A DNA stretch of 64,000 bases from Kofleriaceae bacterium (GTDB lineage Bacteria; Myxococcota_A; Polyangia; Haliangiales; Haliangiaceae). The stretch is taken from contig CAXNMK010000002.1 of the NCBI GenBank assembly GCA_964203225.1, forward strand, positions 609,664-673,663, written 5' to 3'. The position numbers were made by a program, and so were the translations under genes. Shown here piece after piece: positions 25,714 through 38,600 of the stretch; positions within the stretch are counted from its first letter, which is position 1, and each line of letters starts with the position of its first letter. Below the pieces are notes generated by a model that saw only the letters and a program-made list of their open reading frames with translations, was not told the origin of the DNA and searched no databases.

Positions 25714-26538
25714 TCAGCCGAGGACGCGGTTGTCGATCAGGCGCGTGGTGCCGACGAACACGGCCATCGCGAGCACGGCACGCTTCTCGACGCGGACCAG
25801 CTCGGTGAGGTCGTCGGGATCGCGCAGCTCGAGGTAGTCGATGCGGGCGAGGCCGGCGTCGACGATCGCGGTGATCGGCGCGCGCGCGGTGGCGACCAGG
25901 CTTGCGGCGTCGCGCTCACCCGCGGCGAACGCGGCGGCGGCGGCGGCGAGGCCGCGCGACAGGGCGAGCGCGGCGGTGCGCTGCTCCGGGGACAGGTACG
26001 CGTTGCGCGAGCTCATCGCCAGGCCGTCCGGTTCGCGGACGATGGGCACGCCGACGATGGTGACGTCGAAGTCGAGATCGCGCGTCATCCGGCGGATGAT
26101 CGCGAGCTGCTGGTAGTCCTTCTCGCCGAACACCGCGAGGTGCGGCTTGGTGATGTGGAACAGCTTGGCGACGATGGTGGCGACGCCGGCGAAGTGGCCG
26201 GGCCGGCTCGCGCCGCACAGCGGCCGCTGCAGCTCGCGGACCTCGACGAACGTCTGCGCGCCAGCCGGGTACATCGCGGCGGCGTCGGGGCAGAACGCGA
26301 GGTCGATGCCGGCGGCGCGCGCCTGGGCGAGATCGCCCTCCTCGTCGCGCGGGTAGCGGGACAGGTCCTCGGTGGCCCCGAACTGGGTGGGGTTGACGAA
26401 GATCGTCAGGATCACGACGTCGGCGCGGGCGCGCGCCTGGCGCACCAGCTCGAGGTGGCCTTCGTGGAGGGCGCCCATCGTGGGGACCACGGCGATCCGC
26501 CGGCCATCGCGGCGGAGATCCTCGACGCGTGCGCGCAT
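25714..26538 (-). CDS. panC: pantoate--beta-alanine ligase
   Basis: The motif IAVVPTMGALHEGHLELV is present. The ORF opens at 26580, but the internal Met at 26538 fits the PanC N-terminus better. Confidence 0.9.
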   Translation of the reverse strand: MRARVEDLRRDGRRIAVVPTMGALHEGHLELVRQARARADVVILTIFVNPTQFGATEDLSRYPRDEEGDLAQARAAGIDLAFCPDAAAMYPAGAQTFVEVRELQRPLCGASRPGHFAGVATIVAKLFHITKPHLAVFGEKDYQQLAIIRRMTRDLDFDVTIVGVPIVREPDGLAMSSRNAYLSPEQRTAALALSRGLAAAAAAFAAGERDAASLVATARAPITAIVDAGLARIDYLELRDPDDLTELVRVEKRAVLAMAVFVGTTRLIDNRVLG

Positions 26539-26624
26539 CGCGGCCGGCTCGCGGAACACCTCGAACGGGACGCGGATCACGACGGCACTCTACCGCGCGC
26601 GCGTCGTGCGCGCCGGTCCCCGGC

Positions 26625-27608
26625 TCAGCAGTTCGCGAGGTTCATGCACTCCTGCAGCGTGCTCATCAGCAGCAGGAGGTCCACCGTCGAGCCGCCCTGG
26701 AGGTTGGCGCACGACAGGCCCTCGATGCGGTCGACGCAGCGCTGGGCGGCCGGGCAGGTCGGCAGGGTGCCGTCGGCGAGGGTGTCGATCACCGTGCAGT
26801 ACTCGCCGAGGTCGGGGCTGCACGACGCGAGCTTCTTGCACGCGCGCGCCGCCAGGGTGATGTACGAGCGGGCGTCGCCGCCGAACATTCCGCCGGCACC
26901 ACCGCCGCCGGCTGCACCGCCGCCGGCACCACCGCCGCCGGGGCCGAACGGGTTGGCGAACGGATCCGCGCTGAGGTCGTCGGGATCGGGCGTGGGGGCG
27001 GGAGCGGGATCGGGATCTAGATCGGGCACCTGCTGCGGCACCGTGCCGGGCGGCGGGGTGGGCGCGGCCCACGGATCGGCGCCGCCGGGCGCGCCCGGCG
27101 CGCCCGGGATGACGTTCGGCTGGGGCGTGGGCAGCACCGGCGTGACGTCCATCCGCTCGGGCGCGGGCGGCGGGCGCAGCACCCGTGGATCGGCCTTGGC
27201 CTCGGGGGTGGCGGGCGGCCACAGCATCAGCACGAGGGCTGCCACGATCGCGATCGCGGCCAGGACGATCACGATGATCGGCCAGGTCCGCCACAGGCCG
27301 CGCGCCGGGGCGGCGTCCTGGCGGCCGGTCGGGCGCGGCGGCAGCACCGGGGTCGAGCCGAGGTCGGCGGCGTACGCGGCGGCGACCGGCAGCGGCGCGA
27401 ACTCGGTGCGGGGCGCGGCTTCGATGGGCGCCGTGGCCGCGACGAGCGGCGGCAGCGCGGCCGCGGCGGCCGGGCGCGACGAGCGATGCGCGGACAGGTC
27501 TGCCTTGCAGTGCCGGCACCGCCCCGCGACGGGGTGGATCAGGCCGCCGCACCGCGGACATGACACGCGAGCTTCCGACGGGCCGGGAGGACGAGCCACC
27601 GCTGCCAT
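26625..27608 (-). CDS. membrane-anchored zinc-ribbon protein with a Pro-rich linker, a Gly-rich segment and a Cys-rich C-terminal domain
   Basis: The ATG is at 27608. It has CPRCGGLIHPVAGRCRHC, a TM helix (WPIIVIVLAAIAIVAALVLMLW), a PxP-rich region, a poly-G/A stretch and 10 Cys at the C-terminus. Confidence 0.55.
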   Translation of the reverse strand: MAAVARPPGPSEARVSCPRCGGLIHPVAGRCRHCKADLSAHRSSRPAAAAALPPLVAATAPIEAAPRTEFAPLPVAAAYAADLGSTPVLPPRPTGRQDAAPARGLWRTWPIIVIVLAAIAIVAALVLMLWPPATPEAKADPRVLRPPPAPERMDVTPVLPTPQPNVIPGAPGAPGGADPWAAPTPPPGTVPQQVPDLDPDPAPAPTPDPDDLSADPFANPFGPGGGGAGGGAAGGGGAGGMFGGDARSYITLAARACKKLASCSPDLGEYCTVIDTLADGTLPTCPAAQRCVDRIEGLSCANLQGGSTVDLLLLMSTLQECMNLANC

Positions 27609-27741
27609 GCCCTCATGCTGGCAGGAGATCCGCCCGGATGCAAAGCGATGCAACGCGATCGTCCGGGCGTGCGCGGAGGTGCGCCCTGGCAGCGGCTGGC
27701 AACCGCTTGCCGAGCCTCCGTGCGCACCGCACAGTGCCTCG

Positions 27742-28533
27742 ATGCCCGGCCTTGCTCCTCCGCGGGTGACCCGCCACGACGTGTTCGTCCGCGGCCTCGA
27801 CCCGCGCCACGACGGGGTGCGGATCGCGCACCTGTCGGACATCCACGTCGGCTCGCTGACGCCCGCGACGCACATCCGCGCGGCGATCGACGCGTGCAAC
27901 GCCGAGGCGCCCGATCTGGTCGCGCTGACCGGCGACTACGTGTGCTGGCGCCGCAGCGACGTGGCCCGCGCGTCCGAGCAGCTCGGCGGCCTGCGCGCGC
28001 CGCGCGTGCTCGCGGTACTCGGCAACCACGACTACTTCGTGTGGGGCGCCGGCGTCCGCCACGTCCTCGAGGGCCACGGCTACGACGTGCTCCGCAACCA
28101 GACCACCGTGTGCGAGGTGCGCGGCGCGCCGCTCGCGCTGGTCGGCGTCGACGATCCGGTGACCCGCCACCACGATCTCGACGAGGCGTTCCGCGGTGCG
28201 CCCGCGCATGTCTCGCGCGTGGTGCTGTGCCACGGGCCGGATCTCGCGCCGCAGATCGCGCCCCGCGGCGCGGCGCTGGTGCTGTCGGGTCACACCCACG
28301 GCGGCCAGATCTACGTGAAGGGGCTGACCGAGCGCGTGATGAAGCGACTCGGGCTCGGCTACCGGCGCGGGCTGTACGACGTCGGCTCGCCCGCGGGGGC
28401 GCCGGTGGGCTCGACCCAGCTCTACGTCACGCCCGGCGTCGGGTTCTCGGGCGTCACGCGCCGCCACGGCGAGGGCACGCACGCCGAGGTCGCGGTGCTC
28501 ACGCTGCGGGTCGCGCGGCCGGCGCCGCGCTGA
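27742..28533 (+). CDS. calcineurin-like metallophosphoesterase
   Basis: The motifs are HLSDIHVG, LTGDYV, GNHDY, GHTHGG and a C-terminal GVGFSG. Confidence 0.8.
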   Translation: MPGLAPPRVTRHDVFVRGLDPRHDGVRIAHLSDIHVGSLTPATHIRAAIDACNAEAPDLVALTGDYVCWRRSDVARASEQLGGLRAPRVLAVLGNHDYFVWGAGVRHVLEGHGYDVLRNQTTVCEVRGAPLALVGVDDPVTRHHDLDEAFRGAPAHVSRVVLCHGPDLAPQIAPRGAALVLSGHTHGGQIYVKGLTERVMKRLGLGYRRGLYDVGSPAGAPVGSTQLYVTPGVGFSGVTRRHGEGTHAEVAVLTLRVARPAPR

Positions 28534-29280
28534 TCACGGGTGGCGCTGCTCGAGGTACATCCGCAGCGCGAACGCGCCCGCGGGGGTCGCGCGCCACGCC
28601 CGCACCTGCGCGCGGCCGGCGGCCGGGAACGCGTCGAGCGGCGCCGGCGGCACCGGATGCCCGTCGGGCAGCAGTACGGGCGCGGCGAGCGCGGCGAACG
28701 TGAGGTCCGCAATCGAGAACCGCTTGCCGACGAGGAACCGGCGCCCATCGGCGAGCAGGGCGCTGATCTTGGCGAGTTGCTCGTCGATCTTGACGCGCGA
28801 GCGCTCGGCGCCGGCGGCGTCGATCTTGAGGCCGCGCTTGAGCAGGCCCACGGCGACCGGGCGCGCCACCCGCAGCGCGATCTGCTGCCAGCGCGGCGTG
28901 GTCTTCGCGAGCGCGTGCAGGATCTCCGGGCGCGGCAGCAGCTGGTAGTAGCCCCACCGGCGGGTCGCCGGCCCGAGCTGCGCGCCGAGCTCGTCCTCGA
29001 GCGCACGCGCGGCGGCGCGATCGTCCGGATCGCCCGGCAGCAGCGCTCCCGGCGTCAGGTGGTCCGCCCACGTCACGATGTCGAGCGAGTCGCCGAGCAC
29101 CACGCCGTCGCCGGTGACGAGGGCCGGCACGGTGCGGCCGGCGCCCGCGCGGCGGTTGGCGAGGTTGTGGAAGATCGGCAGGCTGCCTTCCTCCGTGAAC
29201 GGGATCCGGCTGCGCTCGAGCGCCCATCGCGCCTTCTCGCAGTAGTGGGAGAACGGGATCGTCAGCAGCCGGGCAGTCAT
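28534..29280 (-). CDS. glutathione S-transferase family protein
   Basis: The ATG at 29280 gives MTARLLTIPFSHYCEKARWALE (GST N-terminal thioredoxin-like fold). It is convergent with the phosphoesterase gene. Confidence 0.75.
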   Translation of the reverse strand: MTARLLTIPFSHYCEKARWALERSRIPFTEEGSLPIFHNLANRRAGAGRTVPALVTGDGVVLGDSLDIVTWADHLTPGALLPGDPDDRAAARALEDELGAQLGPATRRWGYYQLLPRPEILHALAKTTPRWQQIALRVARPVAVGLLKRGLKIDAAGAERSRVKIDEQLAKISALLADGRRFLVGKRFSIADLTFAALAAPVLLPDGHPVPPAPLDAFPAAGRAQVRAWRATPAGAFALRMYLEQRHP

Positions 29281-29359
29281 GGTGGTCACGATACGCGAGG
29301 CTCGGTCCCACGGGGCGCGGCCTGGCGGTCCGCGCGCCAGGGCTCGCCAGGGTCGTCGC

Positions 29360-29698
29360 TCAGCCCGGCGGGCGGCACACCGCGCCCGGACCATCGGCGA
29401 CGGTGATGCACGCCGTGCCGTCGGGGCAGCCCTTGCCGTCGGCACAGGTGACCTCGCAGCTGGTGAACGCGGGGCCGCGCGGGCCGGCGATCCCGTGATA
29501 GGTCACGCAGCTGCCGGCGGCGCACGTGCCGTCGGCGGCGCACGGCTGGCCGAGCTTCGCGAGGTCGAGCGCGGGCGGTGCGGGTTCGGGCAGTGAGGGC
29601 TCGGTGACCGGCGCGGGCGGCGTGGTGGACGTGGCGGGCGGGGTGGCGCCGCCGCACGCGGCGAGCAGCACGGTGGCGAGGCAGGCGAGGCGAACCAT
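29360..29698 (-). CDS. small Cys-rich lipoprotein
   Basis: It has a lipobox (LLAACGG) and 10 Cys in 112 aa. The ATG is at 29698. Confidence 0.5.
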
Positions 29699-29712
29699 GC
29701 GCGCAGCGTAGC

Positions 29713-30858
29713 TCACCGCCGCGCCATCGCCCCGCGCATCAGGTCGACGAACCCGCCCTGGCCCTCGGCGAGCATCGCATCCAGCTCCTGGCCGACGGCG
29801 CGCACCTGCGGGCGCTTGCCGAGCGCGAGCACCGCGGCGATCTGGATCGTGATCAGCATCGACAGCCGGATCCCGGCCATGCCCGCCCAGCCGCCGGCGC
29901 CGAACGCCAGCACCCCGAACCGCAGCAGGGTGCCGAGCGGCTCGGCGACGTCGTTGAACATCCGTCGCGGGGGCGCCAGGGCGGACGCACCGCGCCGGGC
30001 CAGCGCCTTGCTCGCGGGCGCGGACTCGTCGGGGCGCGGCGTGCTCCGGGCGAGCAGCGCCACGACCTCGCGCGCGCGCTGCGGGCGCTTGTCGGGATCC
30101 GGATCGGTCATCGCCGCGAGCGCGTCGCGCAGCACGGGCTCGAGGTGGGGCAGGTGGCGCGCGAGGTCCATGCGCAGGCCCTTGCGCGGGACGTCCTCGG
30201 GCTCCACGCCGCCGGCAAGCGCGACGATGGTGGCGCCGAGCGCGTACAGGTCGGTTGCGGGCACCGCCTGGCCGTGGAGCTGCTCGGGGGCCATGTAGCC
30301 AAACGTGCCGACGATCGTCGAGCCACCCTTGTCGCGGGCGGCATCGAGGACGCCGCCGAAATCGACGATCGCCACCCGGCCGTCCGGCGCGCGGACGATG
30401 TTCGACGGCTTGAGATCGCGGTGGATCACCGCGGGCGCGCGGGTGTGGAGGTAGTCGAGGATCTCCAGGCAGCGGACCAGCACGTCGCGGAGCTCGAGCT
30501 CCGAGAATCGCCGGCGCGCCGCGATCGCGCTCAGGTCCTCGCCGGGCGCGCGCTGCATCACCAGGTTGAACGTGCCGGGCGGCTCCTCGATGGTGGCGAA
30601 CAGGCGCGGCACGCCGGCGTGGCGGAGCTGCCCGAGCACCTTGCCCTCGCGCTCGAACAGCTCGAACGACTTCCACGTGCCGCGCGGGGTCAGGCGCTTG
30701 ACGATCACCTCGCGCTCGGCGGCGACCTTCGCCTGGGTGTCCTGCGCGAGGAAGATGTCGCCCTGCGACCCCTTGCCGAGGCGCGGCCCGAGCCGGAACC
30801 GGCCGCCGAGGAGCGGTCCGTCGAACACACCTGCCATGACGCTCGCCCAGCGTGGCAC
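29713..30858 (-). CDS. Ser/Thr protein kinase with a C-terminal TM anchor
   Basis: The motifs are [28 protein letters not shown] and APEQ. A hydrophobic helix lies near the C-terminus. Confidence 0.9.
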
Positions 30859-30904: not shown

Positions 30905-31012
30905 CCCTCACGGGGCGCCGTCCATGCCCCTCGCGGGGCGCCGTCCCCGCCCCTCGCGGGGCGCCGTCCCCGCCCCTCGCGGGGCGCTGTCCCGGCCCCT
31001 CGCGGCGCGCCT
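30905..31012. repeat. about 24-bp tandem repeat (CTCGCGGGGCGCCGTCCCCGCCCC) x~4.5
   Basis: Imperfect head-to-tail copies lie between the MVP-like stop (31022) and the kinase start (30858). Confidence 0.8.
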
Positions 31013-31021
31013 CCCGCGCGT

Positions 31022-33480
31022 TCACCCCGTGGGGAGCGCGTGCCCGTTCGAGGGGACCGTCCGCGCCTGGACCCGGGCGATCACGCCCTCGAGCGGCGTG
31101 CCCGCGAACACCTTGTCGATCACGTCGGTCAGCGTCTTGCCGCCGACGAACGCCTGCACGCTCATCGCCTCGGCGACCTTGGCGAGCGTGTCCGCGTTGG
31201 ACAGCGCCAGCAGCGCCTCGCTGAACCCACCCTGCGCGGCGCCGAACCGGGCCACCGCGGCGTCGACCTCCGCGCGCAGCGCCTCGAGCACCAGCCCCTG
31301 GCGGGCGCGCGCGATCGCGCCCTCGTGCTGGGCGCGCGCCTGATCCCGCGCGAGCTGGGCGCCGTGCTCGGCATCGACGATCGCGCTGCGGGCGAGCGCG
31401 GCCTCGCGCTGGCGGGCGGCCTGCTCGAGCTCGGCCGCGAGCTGCGCGAGCCCGACGCGCAGGCGATCCCCGGTGGCCGCGACCTCGAGCTCGGCGAGCC
31501 GGCGGCCGGTGTCCGCGCGCGCCTCGGCCTCGCCGCGCGCGATCGCCTCGCGCCGCGCGGTCAGCTCGAGGCCGCGGGTGGCGCGCAGGAGGTTGATGCT
31601 GGCCTCCACGGCCTCGTGCTGCGCGTCGCCGAGCAGCGCCGCGATCGCTGGGTCCTCGATGTCGACGCCGAGCACCTCGACGTCGGTGACCCGCATCCCG
31701 ATCTCGGGGAACCACATCCCCGGACGTACGACGGGCATGACGTCCGTGACGTCCGGCGCGGTGGACGGCGCAAGAGCGCGCCCGAGGATCGCGTCGCGCA
31801 CGAGATCCACGGCGTGCGCGTAGAACCCCTCGATGGGGTGGCGCTTGGCGCTGCCCTTGAGCACCGAGCGCACGTGATCGCACAGCAGCTTCACGTAGTT
31901 CTCCACCTCGAACCAGCGCGCGGGCTCGCCCTCGAACGACACCCGCATCGCGTAGCCGAGCGCGACCTCCACGTGATCGGCGGTCTCGACCACGCAGCGA
32001 TCGCTGACCTTGTTGCCCAGCACCCGCAGGTACACGGTCTCGACCAGGCGCTCGGTGGTCTTGGGCGTGCCGGTGGACAGCTGCACCATCTCGAGGGTCT
32101 CGTCGTACGCGAGGATCAGGTTCTGCGGCCCCTGCTCCACGCGCCGGCGGCCCTGCTTGTCGACGACCATCACCGCGTAGCCGACCCACACGCCGACCGC
32201 GGGCGCGCCCTCGAACCGGGTGTCGATCATGAGCGTGCGCGGCTTGGTGAACGTGTTCGAGCGGTCGACCGCCTCGAACGAGGGCGCGGTGGTGCCCGGC
32301 GCGTGCGCGGCCTCGGCCGGGACCGGCGCGCCATCGGCGTGGCGCAGCGCGCGGTTGTGCGCGAGCACCTCGGCGTTGCCCGGGTACCAGGTGGCGCACT
32401 CGCGCGCGGTCAGGGCGCGGCGGACGATCACCTCCTCGACGGGGTTGGGCAGCAGCATCGCGGGTCCGCGCACCGTGCGGATCGCGCCGGTCTGCTTGTT
32501 CATCACGTAGCGCGCCTCGCCGGCGGGGACCGCCACCGCGAAGTGCTTGTCGTGCCCGTCGGAGCGCACCAGCGCGTGCTCCTCGCGCGGGAAGTAGATC
32601 GCGGTCTGCTTGCCGGTGATGAACAGCTCGTCGCCGACGTGCCGGGCCACGCCGTCCTCGGTGTACGGGGCGATCACCTTGACGTGCAGGCCCTGGATCT
32701 CGGACAGCTCGATCGCGCGGAACTTGCGGGCGCCGCCCTGCGTGATCACCGCCTCGGTGGGCGCGGGGAACACCACCTGCGGCCCGCGCTCGTAGCGCTT
32801 CTTGCCGCTCTCGTCGACGAGGATGCAGTACTCGAGGCGCTCGAGCGTGAGCGCCTCGCGCACCCACGCGCCGGGCTCGTCGGGCACCACGCCCACGCCG
32901 GTCGGCGGGATGTAGAACGACACGTCCGTGCCCTTGATCAGCAGCAGCTTGCCGACGGTGAGGTCCGCGGGGACGCGCACGACCGGGGCGCCGCATCGGG
33001 CTCCCCGGCCGCCGGCTTGATCACCGCCTCGCCCCAGCTCCGGCGCGCCTCGTCCTCGTTGTAGACGCGCACGAGCAGGTACTGGTTCGAGCGCAGGTGG
33101 TGGCCCTGCACGAGCTGCACGAGCTGACCGGGCCACAGCGCGAATGCGCACGGGCCGGTGATGTTGATCTTGCGGCCGACGAGCAGGTCCGGCGACGGGT
33201 ACACGCCGCCCGCCGCCGGGTGCTCCTGCTTGGCGGCGGGGTTCTTGAGGATCAGGTAGAAGCCCTCCGGCGCGATCGCGATCTGCTGGACCGCGTCCTC
33301 GAGGGAGCACGGCGCGAACTGCTTGGTGTCCGGATCGAACACCACCGGCCGCTCCTGCGCGGTCGGGTTGATCACCGTCGGGCCGGTGTACGTCTTGACG
33401 ATCCCCTTGGTGACGTCTTGCATGTAGGCGTACTCGGTCGGGGCGAGGACCAGATCGCGCTTGGTGGTTCGGTCGTCCAT
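31022..33480 (-). pseudogene. major vault protein (MVP) homolog; apparent 1-nt frameshift near 32985-32992 (a C4 run where a C5 run is expected)
   Basis: The gene starts with ATG at 33480 with a GGAGGG SD. N-terminal MVP repeats are present ([49 protein letters not shown]...YLLVRV). The reading frame then shifts by one and continues with the shoulder-domain hallmark VVETADHVEVALGYAMRVSFE (compare MVP [22 protein letters not shown]) and an Ala/Glu/Arg-rich cap-helix-like coiled coil. The total is about 815 aa across two frames (ORFs 32938..33759 and 31022..33559). Confidence 0.8.
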
Positions 33481-33679
33481 GCGTTTCCCTCCGTTCAAGA
33501 ACGTGACCAGCCGCAGGTGCGCGAGCGCCCGTGCCGCACGAGCCCGGGCGCTGCTCCATCGGCGAGCACCTGCGTCAGCGTGGAGCGGCCTGCGCCGTGC
33601 TGGCGCAGCGTCCCTCGTCCTGGCGCTGATGCACCGGCATGGCGGATCGTCGCGGCGTCGATCGCGGTTCGATCGCGCG

Positions 33680-34516
33680 TCAGTCGGCGTACGGCGCGAA
33701 CGCCGCGCGCGAGCTGCGGCCGCGGTTGAGCGCGGCGAGCTCGGCGGCGGTGAACGCATCGGGGGTGCCCGCGGGCAGGCGCGCGCGGATGAACCCGATC
33801 ACCAGGCGGCGGGCAGCGGCGCCGGCCTCCGCGATCGCGTCGCTGTCGCTGCCCGGCTCGGCGCACTCGTCCCACAGCTCGAACAGCGCGCGCCGGCGGG
33901 CCGCCGGCTCGGACACCGTCGCCCACAGCACGTCGAGGTTGCGCTGCACGTGGGCGGGCGCCTGCGCGAGCTGCGCGGCGCGATGGCGCGTGCCGATCAT
34001 CACGCGCTCGTCGCGGGTGGCGTCGAGGAACGCGAGCTTCTTCGACGCGTACGGGTCCTGGCCGTGGCGGCGCATCAGCGCGTCGGTGATGTCGAAGCCG
34101 CCGCCGATGATCGCCACGGTCTGGCCATGATCGGGGCGGGTGTCCGCGCCGGTCACGTTCTGATCCTGGCGCCGGGATGCGCCATCGGCGGGCACCGTGC
34201 CGAGCGTGCCGACCGGCCTGGTGTCGTTCTCGTACCAGGCCGCGATCGCGCGGCCCAGCTGCCGCGGGCGCGGCAGCGCGACGTGGATCTGGAAGTTGCG
34301 GCGGTCCTTGAGCGACACCGAGCCATCGCGCTCCACGGTGGCGGTGAACACGCCCTCGTCGGCGCGGTGGCGGCCGTGCCCGGACGGCGCGAGCTTCCCG
34401 GTCTCGAGGTGGGGATCAGCGGTCGGCGCGGTGCCGGCGGGCGCGTGGTCGAGGTCATCCCACCGGCCGGTCGGCAGGGCGCCGGGAGCCAGCGTCACGT
34501 CGCCCGGCCGCCGCAT
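33680..34516 (-). CDS. hypothetical protein; possibly the C-terminal domain of a TM-anchored protein starting at 34971
   Basis: The composition is normal from the Met at 34516 to the stop at 33680. The other frame (34495..34971) has a real-looking N-terminus with a TM helix (LALSAAAHVVLVVWVGV) that loses coding character near a (CTGCCG)x3 repeat at about 34647-34665, where this frame gains it. This suggests one gene with a frameshift. Confidence 0.4.
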   Translation of the reverse strand: MRRPGDVTLAPGALPTGRWDDLDHAPAGTAPTADPHLETGKLAPSGHGRHRADEGVFTATVERDGSVSLKDRRNFQIHVALPRPRQLGRAIAAWYENDTRPVGTLGTVPADGASRRQDQNVTGADTRPDHGQTVAIIGGGFDITDALMRRHGQDPYASKKLAFLDATRDERVMIGTRHRAAQLAQAPAHVQRNLDVLWATVSEPAARRRALFELWDECAEPGSDSDAIAEAGAAARRLVIGFIRARLPAGTPDAFTAAELAALNRGRSSRAAFAPYAD

Positions 34517-34983
34517 GTGCAGCCACGGCGACGGGCTGGTGGGCGGGCGCGCGGGCGGGGTGTCTGCGCCCGGCGCGGTGCCGGGGGCCGTCGCGGTCGC
34601 GGCGAGGCGGGCGGTGGGCGCGCGGCGCACGCGGCCGGGGTCCGGCGGCAGCGGCAGCGGCAGATGGCGGCGGTCGCGGCGGCGTCGAGGAACGCGAGCT
34701 CGACGGGCGCGGCCTCGTCGACGGCGGGCGGGGGCGGCGCGGTGAGCTCGATCAGCTCGATCCGGGGCGCCGGCGGCCGGGGCGGGGGCGCCTCGGCGCG
34801 CACGCCCACCCACACCACCAGCACCACGTGGGCGGCGGCCGAGAGCGCGAGGGCATCCGGGAGCGGCCGCACCGTGGGTCTGACCGGTCCACCGCGGAAT
34901 TCGTTGTCTGGCCGCCGAAACCCGGCGATCCGCCCGACACCTCCCGGACGTGCGATGACAGTCCCGGGCATGGAGAGGCGACG

Positions 34984-35601
34984 ATGATCGTGGCGCTGCT
35001 GGCGCGGTTGTTCCGGACCCGCGGGGACCTGCCCGCCGCCCGGGCGGGTGATCGGGTGGCGATCGGCCGACTGTACGACGCCCACGTCGACGGCCTGTAC
35101 GCGTTCGTGTTCTACCGGGTCGGCCGCGAGGCCGCGCTCGCGGAGGACGTGGTGCAGGAGACGTTCGCGCTCGCCCTGTCCCGCGAGGCCGCGTACGACC
35201 CGGCCCGCGGCTCGGTCGGGAGCTGGCTGACCACGCTGTCGCGCAACGTGATCCGCGATCACCTGCGCGAGCACCGGCGCACCGACGACCTCGCCGACGC
35301 GTGGGAGCGGATCGACGCCACCCTCGCGCAGACGTTCGCCGCGATGGCCGAGCACCCGCTACCCGGCGAGGTCCTCGAGCGCGCCGAGACCCGCGACCTC
35401 GTGCACATGGCGGTCGCCCACCTGCCGGAGCAGTACCGCACCGCGCTGTCGCGCAAGTACGTCGATGGCGAGAGCCTCGAGACGCTCGCGGGCGAGCTCG
35501 GCCTGTCCATCAGCGCCACCAAGTCACTCCTCGCCCGCGCCCGCCGCGCGTTCCGCGACACGTTCGCGACGCTGACGGCGCACCTCTCGGAGGCCGCATG
35601 A
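34984..35601 (+). CDS. ECF (sigma-70 family) RNA polymerase sigma factor
   Basis: It has the sigma-2 region (RLYDAHVDGLYAFVFYRVGREAALAEDVVQETF) and the sigma-4 region (LPEQYRTALSRKYVDGESLETLAGELGLSISATKSLLARAR). The stop overlaps the next start (ATGA). Confidence 0.85.
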   Translation: MIVALLARLFRTRGDLPAARAGDRVAIGRLYDAHVDGLYAFVFYRVGREAALAEDVVQETFALALSREAAYDPARGSVGSWLTTLSRNVIRDHLREHRRTDDLADAWERIDATLAQTFAAMAEHPLPGEVLERAETRDLVHMAVAHLPEQYRTALSRKYVDGESLETLAGELGLSISATKSLLARARRAFRDTFATLTAHLSEAA

Positions 35602-38600
35602 CCCGCACGCCCGATCCCGACGCGACCCGCGACGGCAGCATCCTCGATCGCAACGTCGAGACCCTGCTCGAGACCGGCGGCGATCCGCCGCGCATCGGCG
35701 ATGACGCGCGCCGCCGGATCCGCGCCGAGCTGTTCCACCGCCACGGCGCGGCCACCCCCGCGCGCGGCCTCCGCACGCCCGTGATCGCGATCGCCCTCGG
35801 CCTCGCGGCCACCGTCGTCGCGGCGCTTCTCGTCACGCGCCTGGTCGGCGGCAGCGTCGCGCCCGCGAGCCCGAGCACCCCCGGCGCGCTCGCCGATGGC
35901 TCGACGTGGATCCCCGGCCCCGGGGGCACGGTCACGCTGCTCGGCGCGCGCCGCGTGCGGGTGGAGGGCGCCGTGCTGCTCGACATTGCCCCCGCCCCCG
36001 CCCTTGCCCCCGCCCCCGCCCTCGCCCCCGCCCTTGCCCCCGCCCCCGCCCTTGCCCCCGCCCCCGCCCTTGCCCCCGCCCCCGCGTGCCCCCGGTCACG
36101 GCACGTTCGTCGTCGAGACCGCGCGCGGCCGCATCGAGGTGCTCGGCACGCGGTTCCTCGTCGATGCGTCCGCCGAGCGGACGACCGCCGCCGTGGTTCG
36201 CGGCCAGGTCAGCCTGGCCACCGGGGCCGGGCAGGTGCTGCTGCATGCCGGCGAGCAGGGCATCGCGGAGCGGCAAGGTCCGCCCACGCGCGGCCCCGCC
36301 CCGCGGCTCACTCACCTGGTGTCGTGGGCCGCGGAGGCGCGCCGCACCGCCGAGGTGGACGCCCGCCCGGCGCGCACCGGCTCGCTGTTCGCGCGGTCGC
36401 CCGCCGTGCGCGGCGACGCGCTCGGTCCCGAGGTGCCGCTGCCGCTGCGCGCGCTCGCCGTCGACGTGGTGATCGAGGATCAGGTGGCGCGCATCGCCCT
36501 CGATCAGACGTTCCACAACGCCAGCGATCAGGTGCTCGAGGGTGTGTACCGGTTCGCGATCCCGCCCGACGCCGCGCTCCAGCGGCTCGCGATGTACGTC
36601 GACGGCAAGCTCACCGAGTCCGCGGTCGTCGAGCGCATGCGCGCGCGGCGGGTCTACGAGGAGCTGGTCTACCGCCGCGTCGATCCAGCGCTGCTCGAGT
36701 GGGCGGGCGCCGGGCGGCTGTCGCTGCGCGTGTACCCGCTGCCCGCGCACCAGGACAAGCGCCTGGTGCTCGCGTACACGCAGAGCCTGACCCGCCTGTA
36801 CGGCGACTACACGCTGCGCGTGCCGATGCCCGAGATCGATCTACCCGTCGGCGAGCTCGCGCTCGACGTCACCGTGCGCGGCTGCGCGGGCTGCGAGCTG
36901 GCCTCGCCGAGCCACCAGATCCGCGTGACGAAGCAGGGCGACGACGCCCTCGTCACCTACCGCGCCACCGCCGCGACCCTCGGCGACTCGCTCGTGATCC
37001 ACGTCCGGGATCCGCGCCGCACGCCGAGCGTGGTCACCCACACCGCGGGGGCGGACCGCTACCTGCTCGTGCGGGCGCCCGCCCTGCTCCCCGCGCAGGC
37101 GCGCCCGTACCGCCCGCGCACGTGGGTGATCCTCGACGACGTCAGCGCCTCGCGCGGCGCCCCCGAGCGGGCGGCGCAGGCCGCGCTGATCGACGCGTTC
37201 ACGCGCGAGCTCGACGAGGAGGATCGCCTCGCGGTGGTGGCGTTCGACGTCACCGCCCGCACCCTGCTCTCACCGACGCGGGTCCTCGACGTCGACCGCC
37301 GCACACTCGCGACCGCGCTCGCAGACGAGGGCGAGGTCGGCGCCACCGATCTCGGCGTGGGCCTGGCCGCGGCGCTCGCGCACCTCGAGGGCGTGCGGCC
37401 CGACGACGCGATGCTCGTGTACCTCGGCGATGGGGTGCTCACCAGCGGCGGCGCCGTCCCGACCCGGCTCGATGCGCTGCGGGCGCAGGTCACCGGCAAG
37501 GCGCGGTTCGTGGGCGTGGGCGTGGGGGATGGTGCCGATCCGCAGGCCCTCGAGGCTCTCGCGGCCGCGACCGGGGGCTACGTGACCACGATCGACCTCG
37601 CCGACGACCTCGGCTGGCGCGCGTTCGATCTGGTCGCGGCGCTGCACACCACCCGGGTCACCGGGCTCGGCGCCCGCCTCGTCGATGCCGCGGGTGCGCG
37701 GGTCCCGGCGACGGCGTACCTGCGTGCGACGCAGCTCGCCGAGGGGGAAGAGCTCGAGCTCGTCGCGCAGCTCGTGGGCGCGGCGGCGCCGGTCGCGCTC
37801 GAGCTGACCGGCTCGATCGAGGGCACGCCCTGGTTGCAACGGATCGCCCTCCCGTCCGGCGCGGGGGCCCGCGCGGGCTACCTGCCGCGGCTGTGGGCGC
37901 AGCGCCACATCGCCGCGCGGCTGCTCGCCAAGCACGAGCCCGTGATCGTCCCGCCGTGCGTGAACGCCGCGCGCTGCCCCACCGAGGCCCAGCTGCGCGA
38001 GCAGCGCGACGAGGCGATCCGCCAGGAGGTGGTCGCGCTCGGCAAGCGCGAGTTCCTGCTGTCGCGGCACACGTCGTTGCTCGTCCTCGAGAACGACGCG
38101 ATGTACGCGACCTACGGCGTGACCAGGGGCGCCGGCGACACCTGGGCCCCGTACGCCCTGCCGGCGACCATCCCCGTGGTCGCGACCCGGCCGACCGGGA
38201 TCCCGGCGGACGTCGCGGCCGATGCCGAGCTGGTGCGCGCGCCGCTCGAGCCGTTCGCGAGCCCCGCCTCGACGGGGTGGGGCACGATCGGCACGCGCGA
38301 GACCGGTGGGACGCGCGGCGTCGGCTCCGGGCAGGGGTTCGGCGTCGGGTTCGGGCGCTCGGGCGTCGGGATCGGCGGCGGGGGCGCGGCGGCAGGCCCG
38401 GCCCCGAGCGCGGAGACCAGCGCCGCCAGTGGAGCCCCGTTCGCCGACATGGAGCGCCAGGCCAGGGTCGAGACCAAGGACCGGGATGTGCGCGCGGCGG
38501 AGCCCGATCTGGCCGTCGGCCTCGGGCAGCGGCCCGCGCTCGCGCAGCGGCGGCGGGTGCAGGCCGGCGAGCTGGTCGGGCTGGGTGGGCTGATCGGGAA

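Follow-up and report, generated by a model that had tools for sequence, protein, structure and literature searches.

The subject of this report is a gene resembling that of eukaryotic major vault protein (MVP), carried on the minus strand of a 64,000-nucleotide stretch of contig CAXNMK010000002.1 (positions 609,664 to 673,663; this whole stretch is called the window) from the assembly of a Kofleriaceae bacterium. The locus is read as encoding one cytoplasmic protein of 819 residues, a member of the bacterial MVP-like family, with a frame break in the assembly that is probably technical; the probability given to this reading as a whole is about 0.6. Homology of the protein to MVP is nearly certain, supported as it is by sequence, by the family profile and by the predicted fold. 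The gene is a further member of a bacterial family that has already been described, and bacterial homologs of MVP are not new.

The gene starts with ATG at 33480 and ends with TGA at 31022-31024, as read directly from the sequence of the window, which has a G+C content of 72%. The first frame runs for 180 codons from this ATG and is closed by a TGA near 32938. The second frame, -1 relative to the first, carries VVRVPADLTVGKLLLIKGTDVSFYIPPTG and continues to the terminal stop. Adding one C to the run of four C residues (C4 run) at 32985-32988 gives a continuous product of 819 amino acids. In a plot of G+C at third codon positions (GC3), the coding phase changes at about 32940-33060 and the coding signal is kept throughout. 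The N-terminus is conserved among MVP-like homologs (alignment A1), matching the start at 33480. The original prediction had set the outer boundary at 33559 and the joined product at 815 residues; the former merely marks how far upstream the C-terminal frame can be extended, and both values are replaced by those given here. The database product of the locus, P0001, is a truncated form of 652 amino acids, with a GTG start and read MRVPADL, that is 100% identical to the joined query over 80% of the query.

Evidence for homology comes from several kinds of search. The Pfam model MVP_shoulder (PF11978) matches residues 490-609 with 67.1 bits (cut-off 25, E-value 1.8e-18), and Vault_3 (PF17795) barely reaches its cut-off (29.0 bits versus 28.8). 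Across 49 family members, MVP_shoulder is found in all 49, Vault_3 in 48, Band_7 in 19 and Vault_2 (PF17794) in one. NCBIfam has no match for the MVP-like protein. When PDB sequences were searched with phmmer, the only significant matches were MVP chains (8e-17), with query residues 435-728 on rat MVP 466-764 and a weaker colinear stretch of residues 211-346 on rat 274-410. For example, ARYVMNKQTGAIRTVRGPAMLLPN (residues 323-346) has a colinear counterpart of rat MVP in the HMMER alignment, and LEYCILVD is colinear there with rat RHYCVILD. A profile of 133 family sequences matches the MVP of PDB at 3e-46, with profile positions 463-780 on rat 457-802 and 222-352 on rat 279-409.

The predicted structure leads to the same family. 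An AlphaFold2 model of the joined protein, built from the 133-sequence alignment, has a mean predicted local distance difference test score (pLDDT) of 84.2 and a predicted template modelling score (pTM) of 0.64; an alignment of 13 sequences gave a model that was unusable (pLDDT 44.6). With Foldseek against PDB, the top twelve matches of the model are all to full-length MVP, from rabbit, human and rat (1.5e-33 to 5.5e-26). A murine R1-R7 fragment follows at 1.5e-15, and then come the cages of the SPFH superfamily (flotillin, HflK/C, prohibitin, erlin, stomatin). The bacterial MVP-like family is the MVP branch of this superfamily. On the strength of the model, the N-terminal repeats of the protein appear to be recognised by their fold and not by the Vault repeat models.

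These results largely bear out what had been proposed from the nucleotide sequence. The original prediction had called the product a bacterial homolog of MVP, and that assignment holds on the MVP_shoulder match, the PDB matches by sequence and by profile, and MVP as the top fold match. The claim that the shoulder signature matches MVP is confirmed by phmmer, which aligns VVETADHVEVALGYAMRVSFE with rat MVP. It had also been stated that the protein aligns with MVP repeat by repeat; a colinear alignment does exist, but several of the quoted motif pairs join repeats that are not colinear, and seven modules are counted versus nine. Mismatched pairs are to be expected because the protein is repetitive. 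Of the checks that had been suggested, two were run. The search with Pfam models placed MVP_shoulder well above its cut-off and Vault_3 just above, but Vault (PF01505) below; the structure prediction returned beta repeats, shoulder and cap helix in that order.

The domain order, tandem beta repeats followed by shoulder, cap helix and C-terminal region, matches that of the MVP family (Table 1), and the protein has an SPFH fold followed by a coiled-coil helix. The long cap-helix-like coiled coil that had been predicted after the shoulder appears in the model as a single helix (residues 611-748). The repeat modules were parsed by us from the secondary structure of the model and a self-alignment of the profile, with no superposition. 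By this parsing of our own, seven modules are counted, not the nine (R1-R9) of rat MVP, whose domain boundaries are reportedly those of Tanaka and co-workers in 2009. Modules 4-7 are colinear with rat R6-R9 (residues 216-346 on rat 279-409, and the part beginning at 435 on the rat sequence from 466), and three modules therefore remain where the rat protein has R1-R5. The N-terminus passes directly into beta module 1; inspection shows neither a hydrophobic anchor nor a signal peptide there, no dedicated transmembrane predictor having been run. Close homologs differ very little in the C-terminal tail (FGAAQGGFSEALLAL...AEAMSVQAFVGGKTLTDVIDKVFAGTPL, including VFAGTPL), one of the best-conserved stretches of the alignment. 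The tail corresponds in position to the cap-ring of MVP, by analogy with which it may be equivalent in function, and it is a likely candidate for an oligomerisation, apex or partner-binding element.

Table 1. Features of the MVP-like gene and its predicted product. Coordinates are positions in the window; residues (amino acids) refer to the joined 819-residue product.
Feature	Residues	Coordinates	Strand	Basis
Shine-Dalgarno-like GGAGGG		33487..33492	-	6 nt upstream of start codon; direct sequence reading
N-terminal coding segment, first frame (modules 1-2 and first half of module 3)	1-164	32989..33480	-	ATG at 33480; homolog identity; alignment A1
C4 run (G4 on top strand), likeliest site of missing base		32985..32988	-	tblastn frame change; variable loop
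C-terminal coding segment, second frame (contains P0001)	167-819	31025..32984	-	reading of open reading frame; P0001; homolog identity
Stop codon TGA		31022..31024	-	sequence reading
Seven predicted beta repeat modules		32015..33459	-	model secondary structure; profile self-alignment
Module 1 (predicted)	~8-58
Module 2 (predicted)	60-116
Module 3 (predicted), with length-variable loop	118-200
Module 4 (predicted)	205-250
Module 5 (predicted)	252-305
Module 6 (predicted), then helices 359-384 and disordered stretch to ~425	310-355
Module 7 (predicted)	428-489
Shoulder, SPFH/band-7-like	490-609	31655..32014	-	Pfam MVP_shoulder; SPFH next-best fold matches after MVP
Cap-helix-like single long helix (predicted)	611-748	31238..31651	-	DSSP H611-748; pLDDT mostly ~60-79; family profile through rat MVP 647-802
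C-terminal tail	749-819	31025..31237	-	invariant A1 columns; pLDDT <50 in monomer model

The site of the frame break can be narrowed with intact homologs. When those from the related loci L001 and L002 are used in tblastn, two high-scoring segment pairs (HSPs) are obtained in different frames, homolog residues 1-159 matching 33480-33004 at 85-87% identity and residues 159-814 matching 32992-31031 at 71-73%. The ends of these HSPs confine the break to roughly 32984-33006, an interval with three candidate runs: G4 at 33003-33006, C3 at 32998-33000 and the C4 run. By our reading, a base inserted at the C4 run yields KPAAGEPDAAPPVVRVPADL (an EPDAAPP loop), which is like the acidic, proline-rich loops of the homologs, and one inserted at the G4 run yields GGARCGAP, which is unlike them. 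The C4 run is most likely the site; the G4 and C3 runs remain candidates. A 1-nt correction at the C4 run had been part of the original prediction. Its coordinates for the run are right, and one base there restores a protein colinear with the intact homologs, which number in the hundreds, but the exact site is fixed only to within the interval. The break sits in the loop of module 3 (placed at residues 156-170 or 157-177), which varies in length and sequence between homologs in alignment A1. Intact homologs (63-78% identical, mostly 780-860 amino acids) align through the junction uninterrupted, and all listed homologs have 750-910 residues, with none broken at this point. The gene has no lesion besides the single break.

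Sequence context points to an assembly indel as the quite likely cause of this 1-nt break, and for that reason the MVP-like gene is probably intact in the organism. Two genes immediately upstream are also frame-broken (see below). All three breaks, which fall in about 3.2 kb, lie in G/C homopolymer or repeat contexts within otherwise well-conserved genes, so that assembly indels fit better than three independent recent pseudogenisations.

Several observations weigh against reading the locus as an intact gene for a vault-type protein. The sequence as given is frame-broken. Six syntenic genes downstream of the MVP-like gene are each covered by a single tblastn HSP, which means that errors are not uniformly dense, and the three broken neighbouring genes might also mean true decay of the region. 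The Pfam Vault model (PF01505) scores 17.4 bits, short of its cut-off of 27, and is found in just four of the 49 family members. Partners and context were searched in the window and in 5-6 kb flanks of related loci; across the flanks of 80 loci no conserved partner gene was found, and the Rfam search gave no match anywhere in the window, with no vault-RNA-like or Y-RNA-like gene. The literature searched contains no experimental bacterial vault-like particle.

The first of these points belongs to an alternative in which the frameshift is real. The locus would then be a recent pseudogene, or would yield an N-terminal fragment of 180 amino acids together with a GTG-restarted product of 652, and the strain would be without a functional full-length MVP-like protein. 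The truncated P0001 is the product that a database holds for the locus, the breaks in the two neighbouring genes may reflect regional decay, and a second paralog, frequent in related genomes, could make the loss tolerable. The gene itself speaks otherwise: it carries no other lesion, the part before the break is no less identical to orthologs than the part after it (85-87% versus 71-73%), all close homologs are intact, and the G/C homopolymer or tandem-repeat contexts of all three breaks are typical of assembly indels. A real frameshift is accordingly considered unlikely.

If the gene is taken as intact, as preferred here, the next question concerns the family to which it belongs. A word-indexed search gave 5490 proteins at E<=1e-5 among 8000 candidates scored, many of which are labelled 'major vault protein' by JGI. 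An exhaustive search of representatives at 50% identity gave 1172 clusters at E<=1e-3 and 606 at E<=1e-30. Among 185,579 species genomes, scanned as one genome per species with two peptide patterns only, at least 463 MVP-like loci were confirmed. The best 80 of these 463 are nearly all from metagenome-assembled genomes (MAGs) of Myxococcota (Kofleriaceae, Haliangiales, Nannocystaceae, Polyangia). The original prediction had described bacterial copies as rare and patchy. This is fair for bacteria overall, as that scan indicates, but within the myxobacterial lineage such genes are common and often occur as two paralogs. Its assignment of the DNA to a myxobacterium agrees with the closest relatives, which are MAGs of Kofleriaceae, Haliangiales and Myxococcales. 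The nearest database relatives are MAG proteins 77-78% identical; apart from the locus's own P0001, nothing closer than 78% was found in a collection of 15 billion proteins. The large MVP-like family is under strong purifying selection.

Two paralogs on different contigs are present in at least 16 related Myxococcota assemblies among the best 80 loci, one with about 63-74% identity to the query and the other with about 51-54%. Examples include the pairs L005/L082, L014/L074, L010/L071, L021/L067 and L027/L076. Full-length relatives with 53-69% identity have also been detected outside the core Myxococcota, in Candidatus Achromatium palustre (L048), a Planctomycetota MAG (L054) and a Bradymonadia MAG (L061). 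Their occurrence suggests lateral transfer or binning noise in the MAGs.

Bacterial and archaeal members of the family have been reported before. Daly et al. 2013 (PMC3762200) found them in Corallococcus coralloides, in Plesiocystis pacifica (two copies) and in other bacteria, and predicted MVP folds able to dock laterally. Sokolskyi 2019 (bioRxiv 10.1101/872010) analysed MVP homologs of Myxococcales, Cytophagales and Oscillatoriales. A preprint of 2023 reported phage MVPs, and more recently Asgard homologs with five repeats have been described (Nat Microbiol 2026, PMC12962969). The described bacterial proteins, from C. coralloides (H8MNI3), P. pacifica (A6FXM1 and A6FXE2), Enhygromyxa salina (A0A0C2D5V5), Saprospira, Microscilla and Herpetosiphon, are of the same kind as the one in the window; several are from the same phylum, Myxococcota, and in domain content they share an MVP_shoulder with band-7 similarity. 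The two copies of Plesiocystis are matched by the two paralogs in MAGs related to the window. The present copy differs in its source, a Kofleriaceae/Haliangiales-like genome, and in the frame break that the assembly shows. The Asgard homologs are likewise prokaryotic, with a predicted cap helix and shoulder and fewer repeats than rat MVP. They differ in the five repeats reported for them and in that some of them branch with eukaryotes, whereas the protein of the window has about seven repeats and probably belongs to the large bacterial clade.

In comparison with eukaryotic MVP (rat, human and rabbit; PDB 4V60/4HL8, 9BW5, 9Z4W), the protein has the same domain order, can be aligned colinearly from repeat 6 through the cap helix and is similar in length (819 amino acids versus 861-893). 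In contrast, the identity in structural alignments is only about 18-22%, nine repeats stand against the seven modules counted, and the Pfam Vault score is below threshold. The eukaryotic vault also has partners, TEP1, cytoplasmic vPARP and vault RNA, with no likeness found nearby at this locus, and MVP assembles into a hollow 78-mer shell of two halves (39+39), for which the literature searched gave no report on a bacterial homolog. SPFH/band-7 cages (HflK/C, flotillin, prohibitin, stomatin, erlin, QmcA) are membrane-anchored and are without the N-terminal repeat wall of about 480 amino acids.

Solved vaults and SPFH cages provide an analogy for how such a protein might assemble. Subunits would pack side by side through their repeat modules and shoulder, and the long helices of about 140 residues would be bundled into a cap. 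The result would be a hollow cup with ring symmetry, or two cups joined into a closed shell, that could enclose or scaffold a cargo. By this analogy the chances that the MVP-like protein forms a vault-like or SPFH-like oligomeric cage are about even. The further proposal is tentative and somewhat less likely, namely that the MVP-like proteins of Myxococcota (Haliangiales, Kofleriaceae, Nannocystaceae) form true vault-like hollow shells in the cytoplasm, maybe as hetero-oligomers of the two diverged paralogs in the way of paired SPFH cages, and would represent a prokaryotic counterpart, with about seven repeats, or even a source lineage of the eukaryotic vault. The locus in the window would then be an ordinary member of such a system.

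A true MVP/SPFH homolog need not make a closed vault. It might instead form one ring or dome of the SPFH type as a scaffold for another complex, in the manner of HflK/C, flotillin or prohibitin, and the second paralog might take part in a hetero-oligomer. The SPFH cages are the next-best fold matches after MVP, Band_7 is found in 19 of the 49 family members, the modules counted are seven and not nine, and the two diverged paralogs of many related genomes, about 70% and 52% identical to the query, recall the pairs PHB1/2, HflK/C, erlin1/2 and flotillin-1/-2. However, the hydrophobic N-terminal anchor of classical SPFH proteins is missing by inspection, the long MVP-specific repeat wall is retained, and the paralogs are on different contigs rather than co-located. 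This arrangement is regarded as rather unlikely.

Programmed -1 ribosomal frameshifting or transcriptional slippage, giving both a short and a full-length product, is highly improbable. Its sole support is that a -1 shift restores the frame. It was rejected because there is, by our reading of the sequence, no canonical slippery heptamer (X XXY YYZ) at the break, where the run is just four bases long, and because none of the aligned homologs requires a shift; the site also lies in a loop that is not conserved. A chance or low-complexity origin of the MVP resemblance, from an Ala/Glu/Arg-rich coiled coil, is more improbable still, for although this region is compositionally biased and earlier literature noted spurious TolA-like matches for the bacterial family, the idea is refuted by the Pfam MVP_shoulder, 133-sequence profile and Foldseek matches.

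Downstream of the MVP-like gene, on the same strand (25717-30858), are found in order a Ser/Thr kinase (381 amino acids), a Cys-rich putative lipoprotein of about 110 amino acids, a GST, a metallophosphoesterase, an uncharacterised gene and a pantoate ligase (panC). The core from kinase to GST is present in loci L001, L002, L007-L009, L016, L017, L027 and L073, of which L016, L017 and L027 are without the small lipoprotein. The order from metallophosphoesterase to panC was checked in L001 and L002 only. Only among the closest distinct loci, nine in number, is the MVP-like gene followed by the orthologous kinase, and elsewhere kinase matches are weak and variably placed; the kinase was therefore rejected as a family-wide partner. 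Myxobacteria are kinase-rich, and chance adjacency of a kinase is expected for that reason. When stop-to-stop open reading frames (ORFs) were clustered, a procedure that is noisy from shadow ORFs in high-GC DNA, no flanking gene occurred in more than 20 of the 80 loci. PADLOC has no match for the MVP-like protein; the neighbouring kinase matches only kinase-containing defence models such as PD-T4-6, and this is not taken as evidence of defence.

The spacer between the stop of the MVP-like gene and the start of the kinase is filled by a 23-bp tandem repeat (30905-31015; 4.9 copies, 91% matches). Each unit holds a CGCCCC-GCGA-GGGGCG hairpin, and the unit is found nowhere else in the window (4 matches versus 0.03 expected). 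The array could be a set of terminators or attenuators, or an element of the repetitive extragenic palindromic (REP) type.

The two upstream genes mentioned above are broken in different ways. The gene adjoining the MVP-like gene (33683-34870, minus strand) encodes a protein that has a transmembrane segment and a proline-rich region; its C-terminal domain is conserved, has no Pfam match and carries the motifs NPYLDMRR, GGFDITDA and DPYASKKLAFLD. Four orthologs (L016, L017, L027, L051) have the gene as one ORF; in the window it occupies two frames. Its N-terminal part was not placed by tblastn alone and was placed by a hidden Markov model of the four orthologs, positions 16-106 of which match 34869-34597 (E 3.4e-8) and positions 115-438 of which match 34642-33689 in the other frame (E 9e-110). 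One base is missing somewhere in about 34600-34690, in GC-rich low-complexity DNA.

Next come an ECF sigma factor gene (34978-35601) and a large plus-strand gene (35601-41004) with an anti-sigma N-terminus, a transmembrane segment and FecR, VIT, vWA and TPR domains. Residues 5-130 of the latter correspond to 35622-35987, and residues 131-599 to 36088-37503 in a different frame. In between, from 35988 to 36087 on the plus strand, a GCCCCC-rich tandem repeat of 100 nt (18-nt period, 5.9 copies) separates LLDI from APGHGTF, reading APAPAL in one frame and PPPPPL in the other. The repeat is absent from the orthologs, which read LLDIAPGKGTFVVE within one ORF, and the frame is broken because 100 nt is not a multiple of three.

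The minor vault components TEP1 (TROVE/NACHT/WD40), vPARP/PARP4 and vault RNA are all missing from the locus, within the scope of the context search. The broken gene that lies 2.1 kb upstream of the MVP homolog does combine VIT with vWA, a pairing that occurs also in vault PARP. It was considered as a vPARP analogue and rejected: the VIT-vWA part is joined in one protein to a FecR-type anti-sigma module that has a transmembrane segment, and so would lie outside the cytoplasm, and synteny with the MVP-like gene is common to only three close relatives (L016, L027, L051). The proximity is regarded as coincidence.

The function of the vault has been under study for decades. A bacterial system with conserved MVP-like genes is possibly a simpler route to what such shells enclose, and the family is relevant to a possible prokaryotic origin of the vault. 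The opportunity lies with the family as a whole, which in silico work has covered before; in architecture, partners and context this locus brings nothing new. With indel-type frame breaks in the assembly, truncated gene calls in this region are not to be read as biology. What the locus does is to confirm a large MVP-like family under selection in Polyangia-type myxobacteria and to flag its two-paralog pattern.

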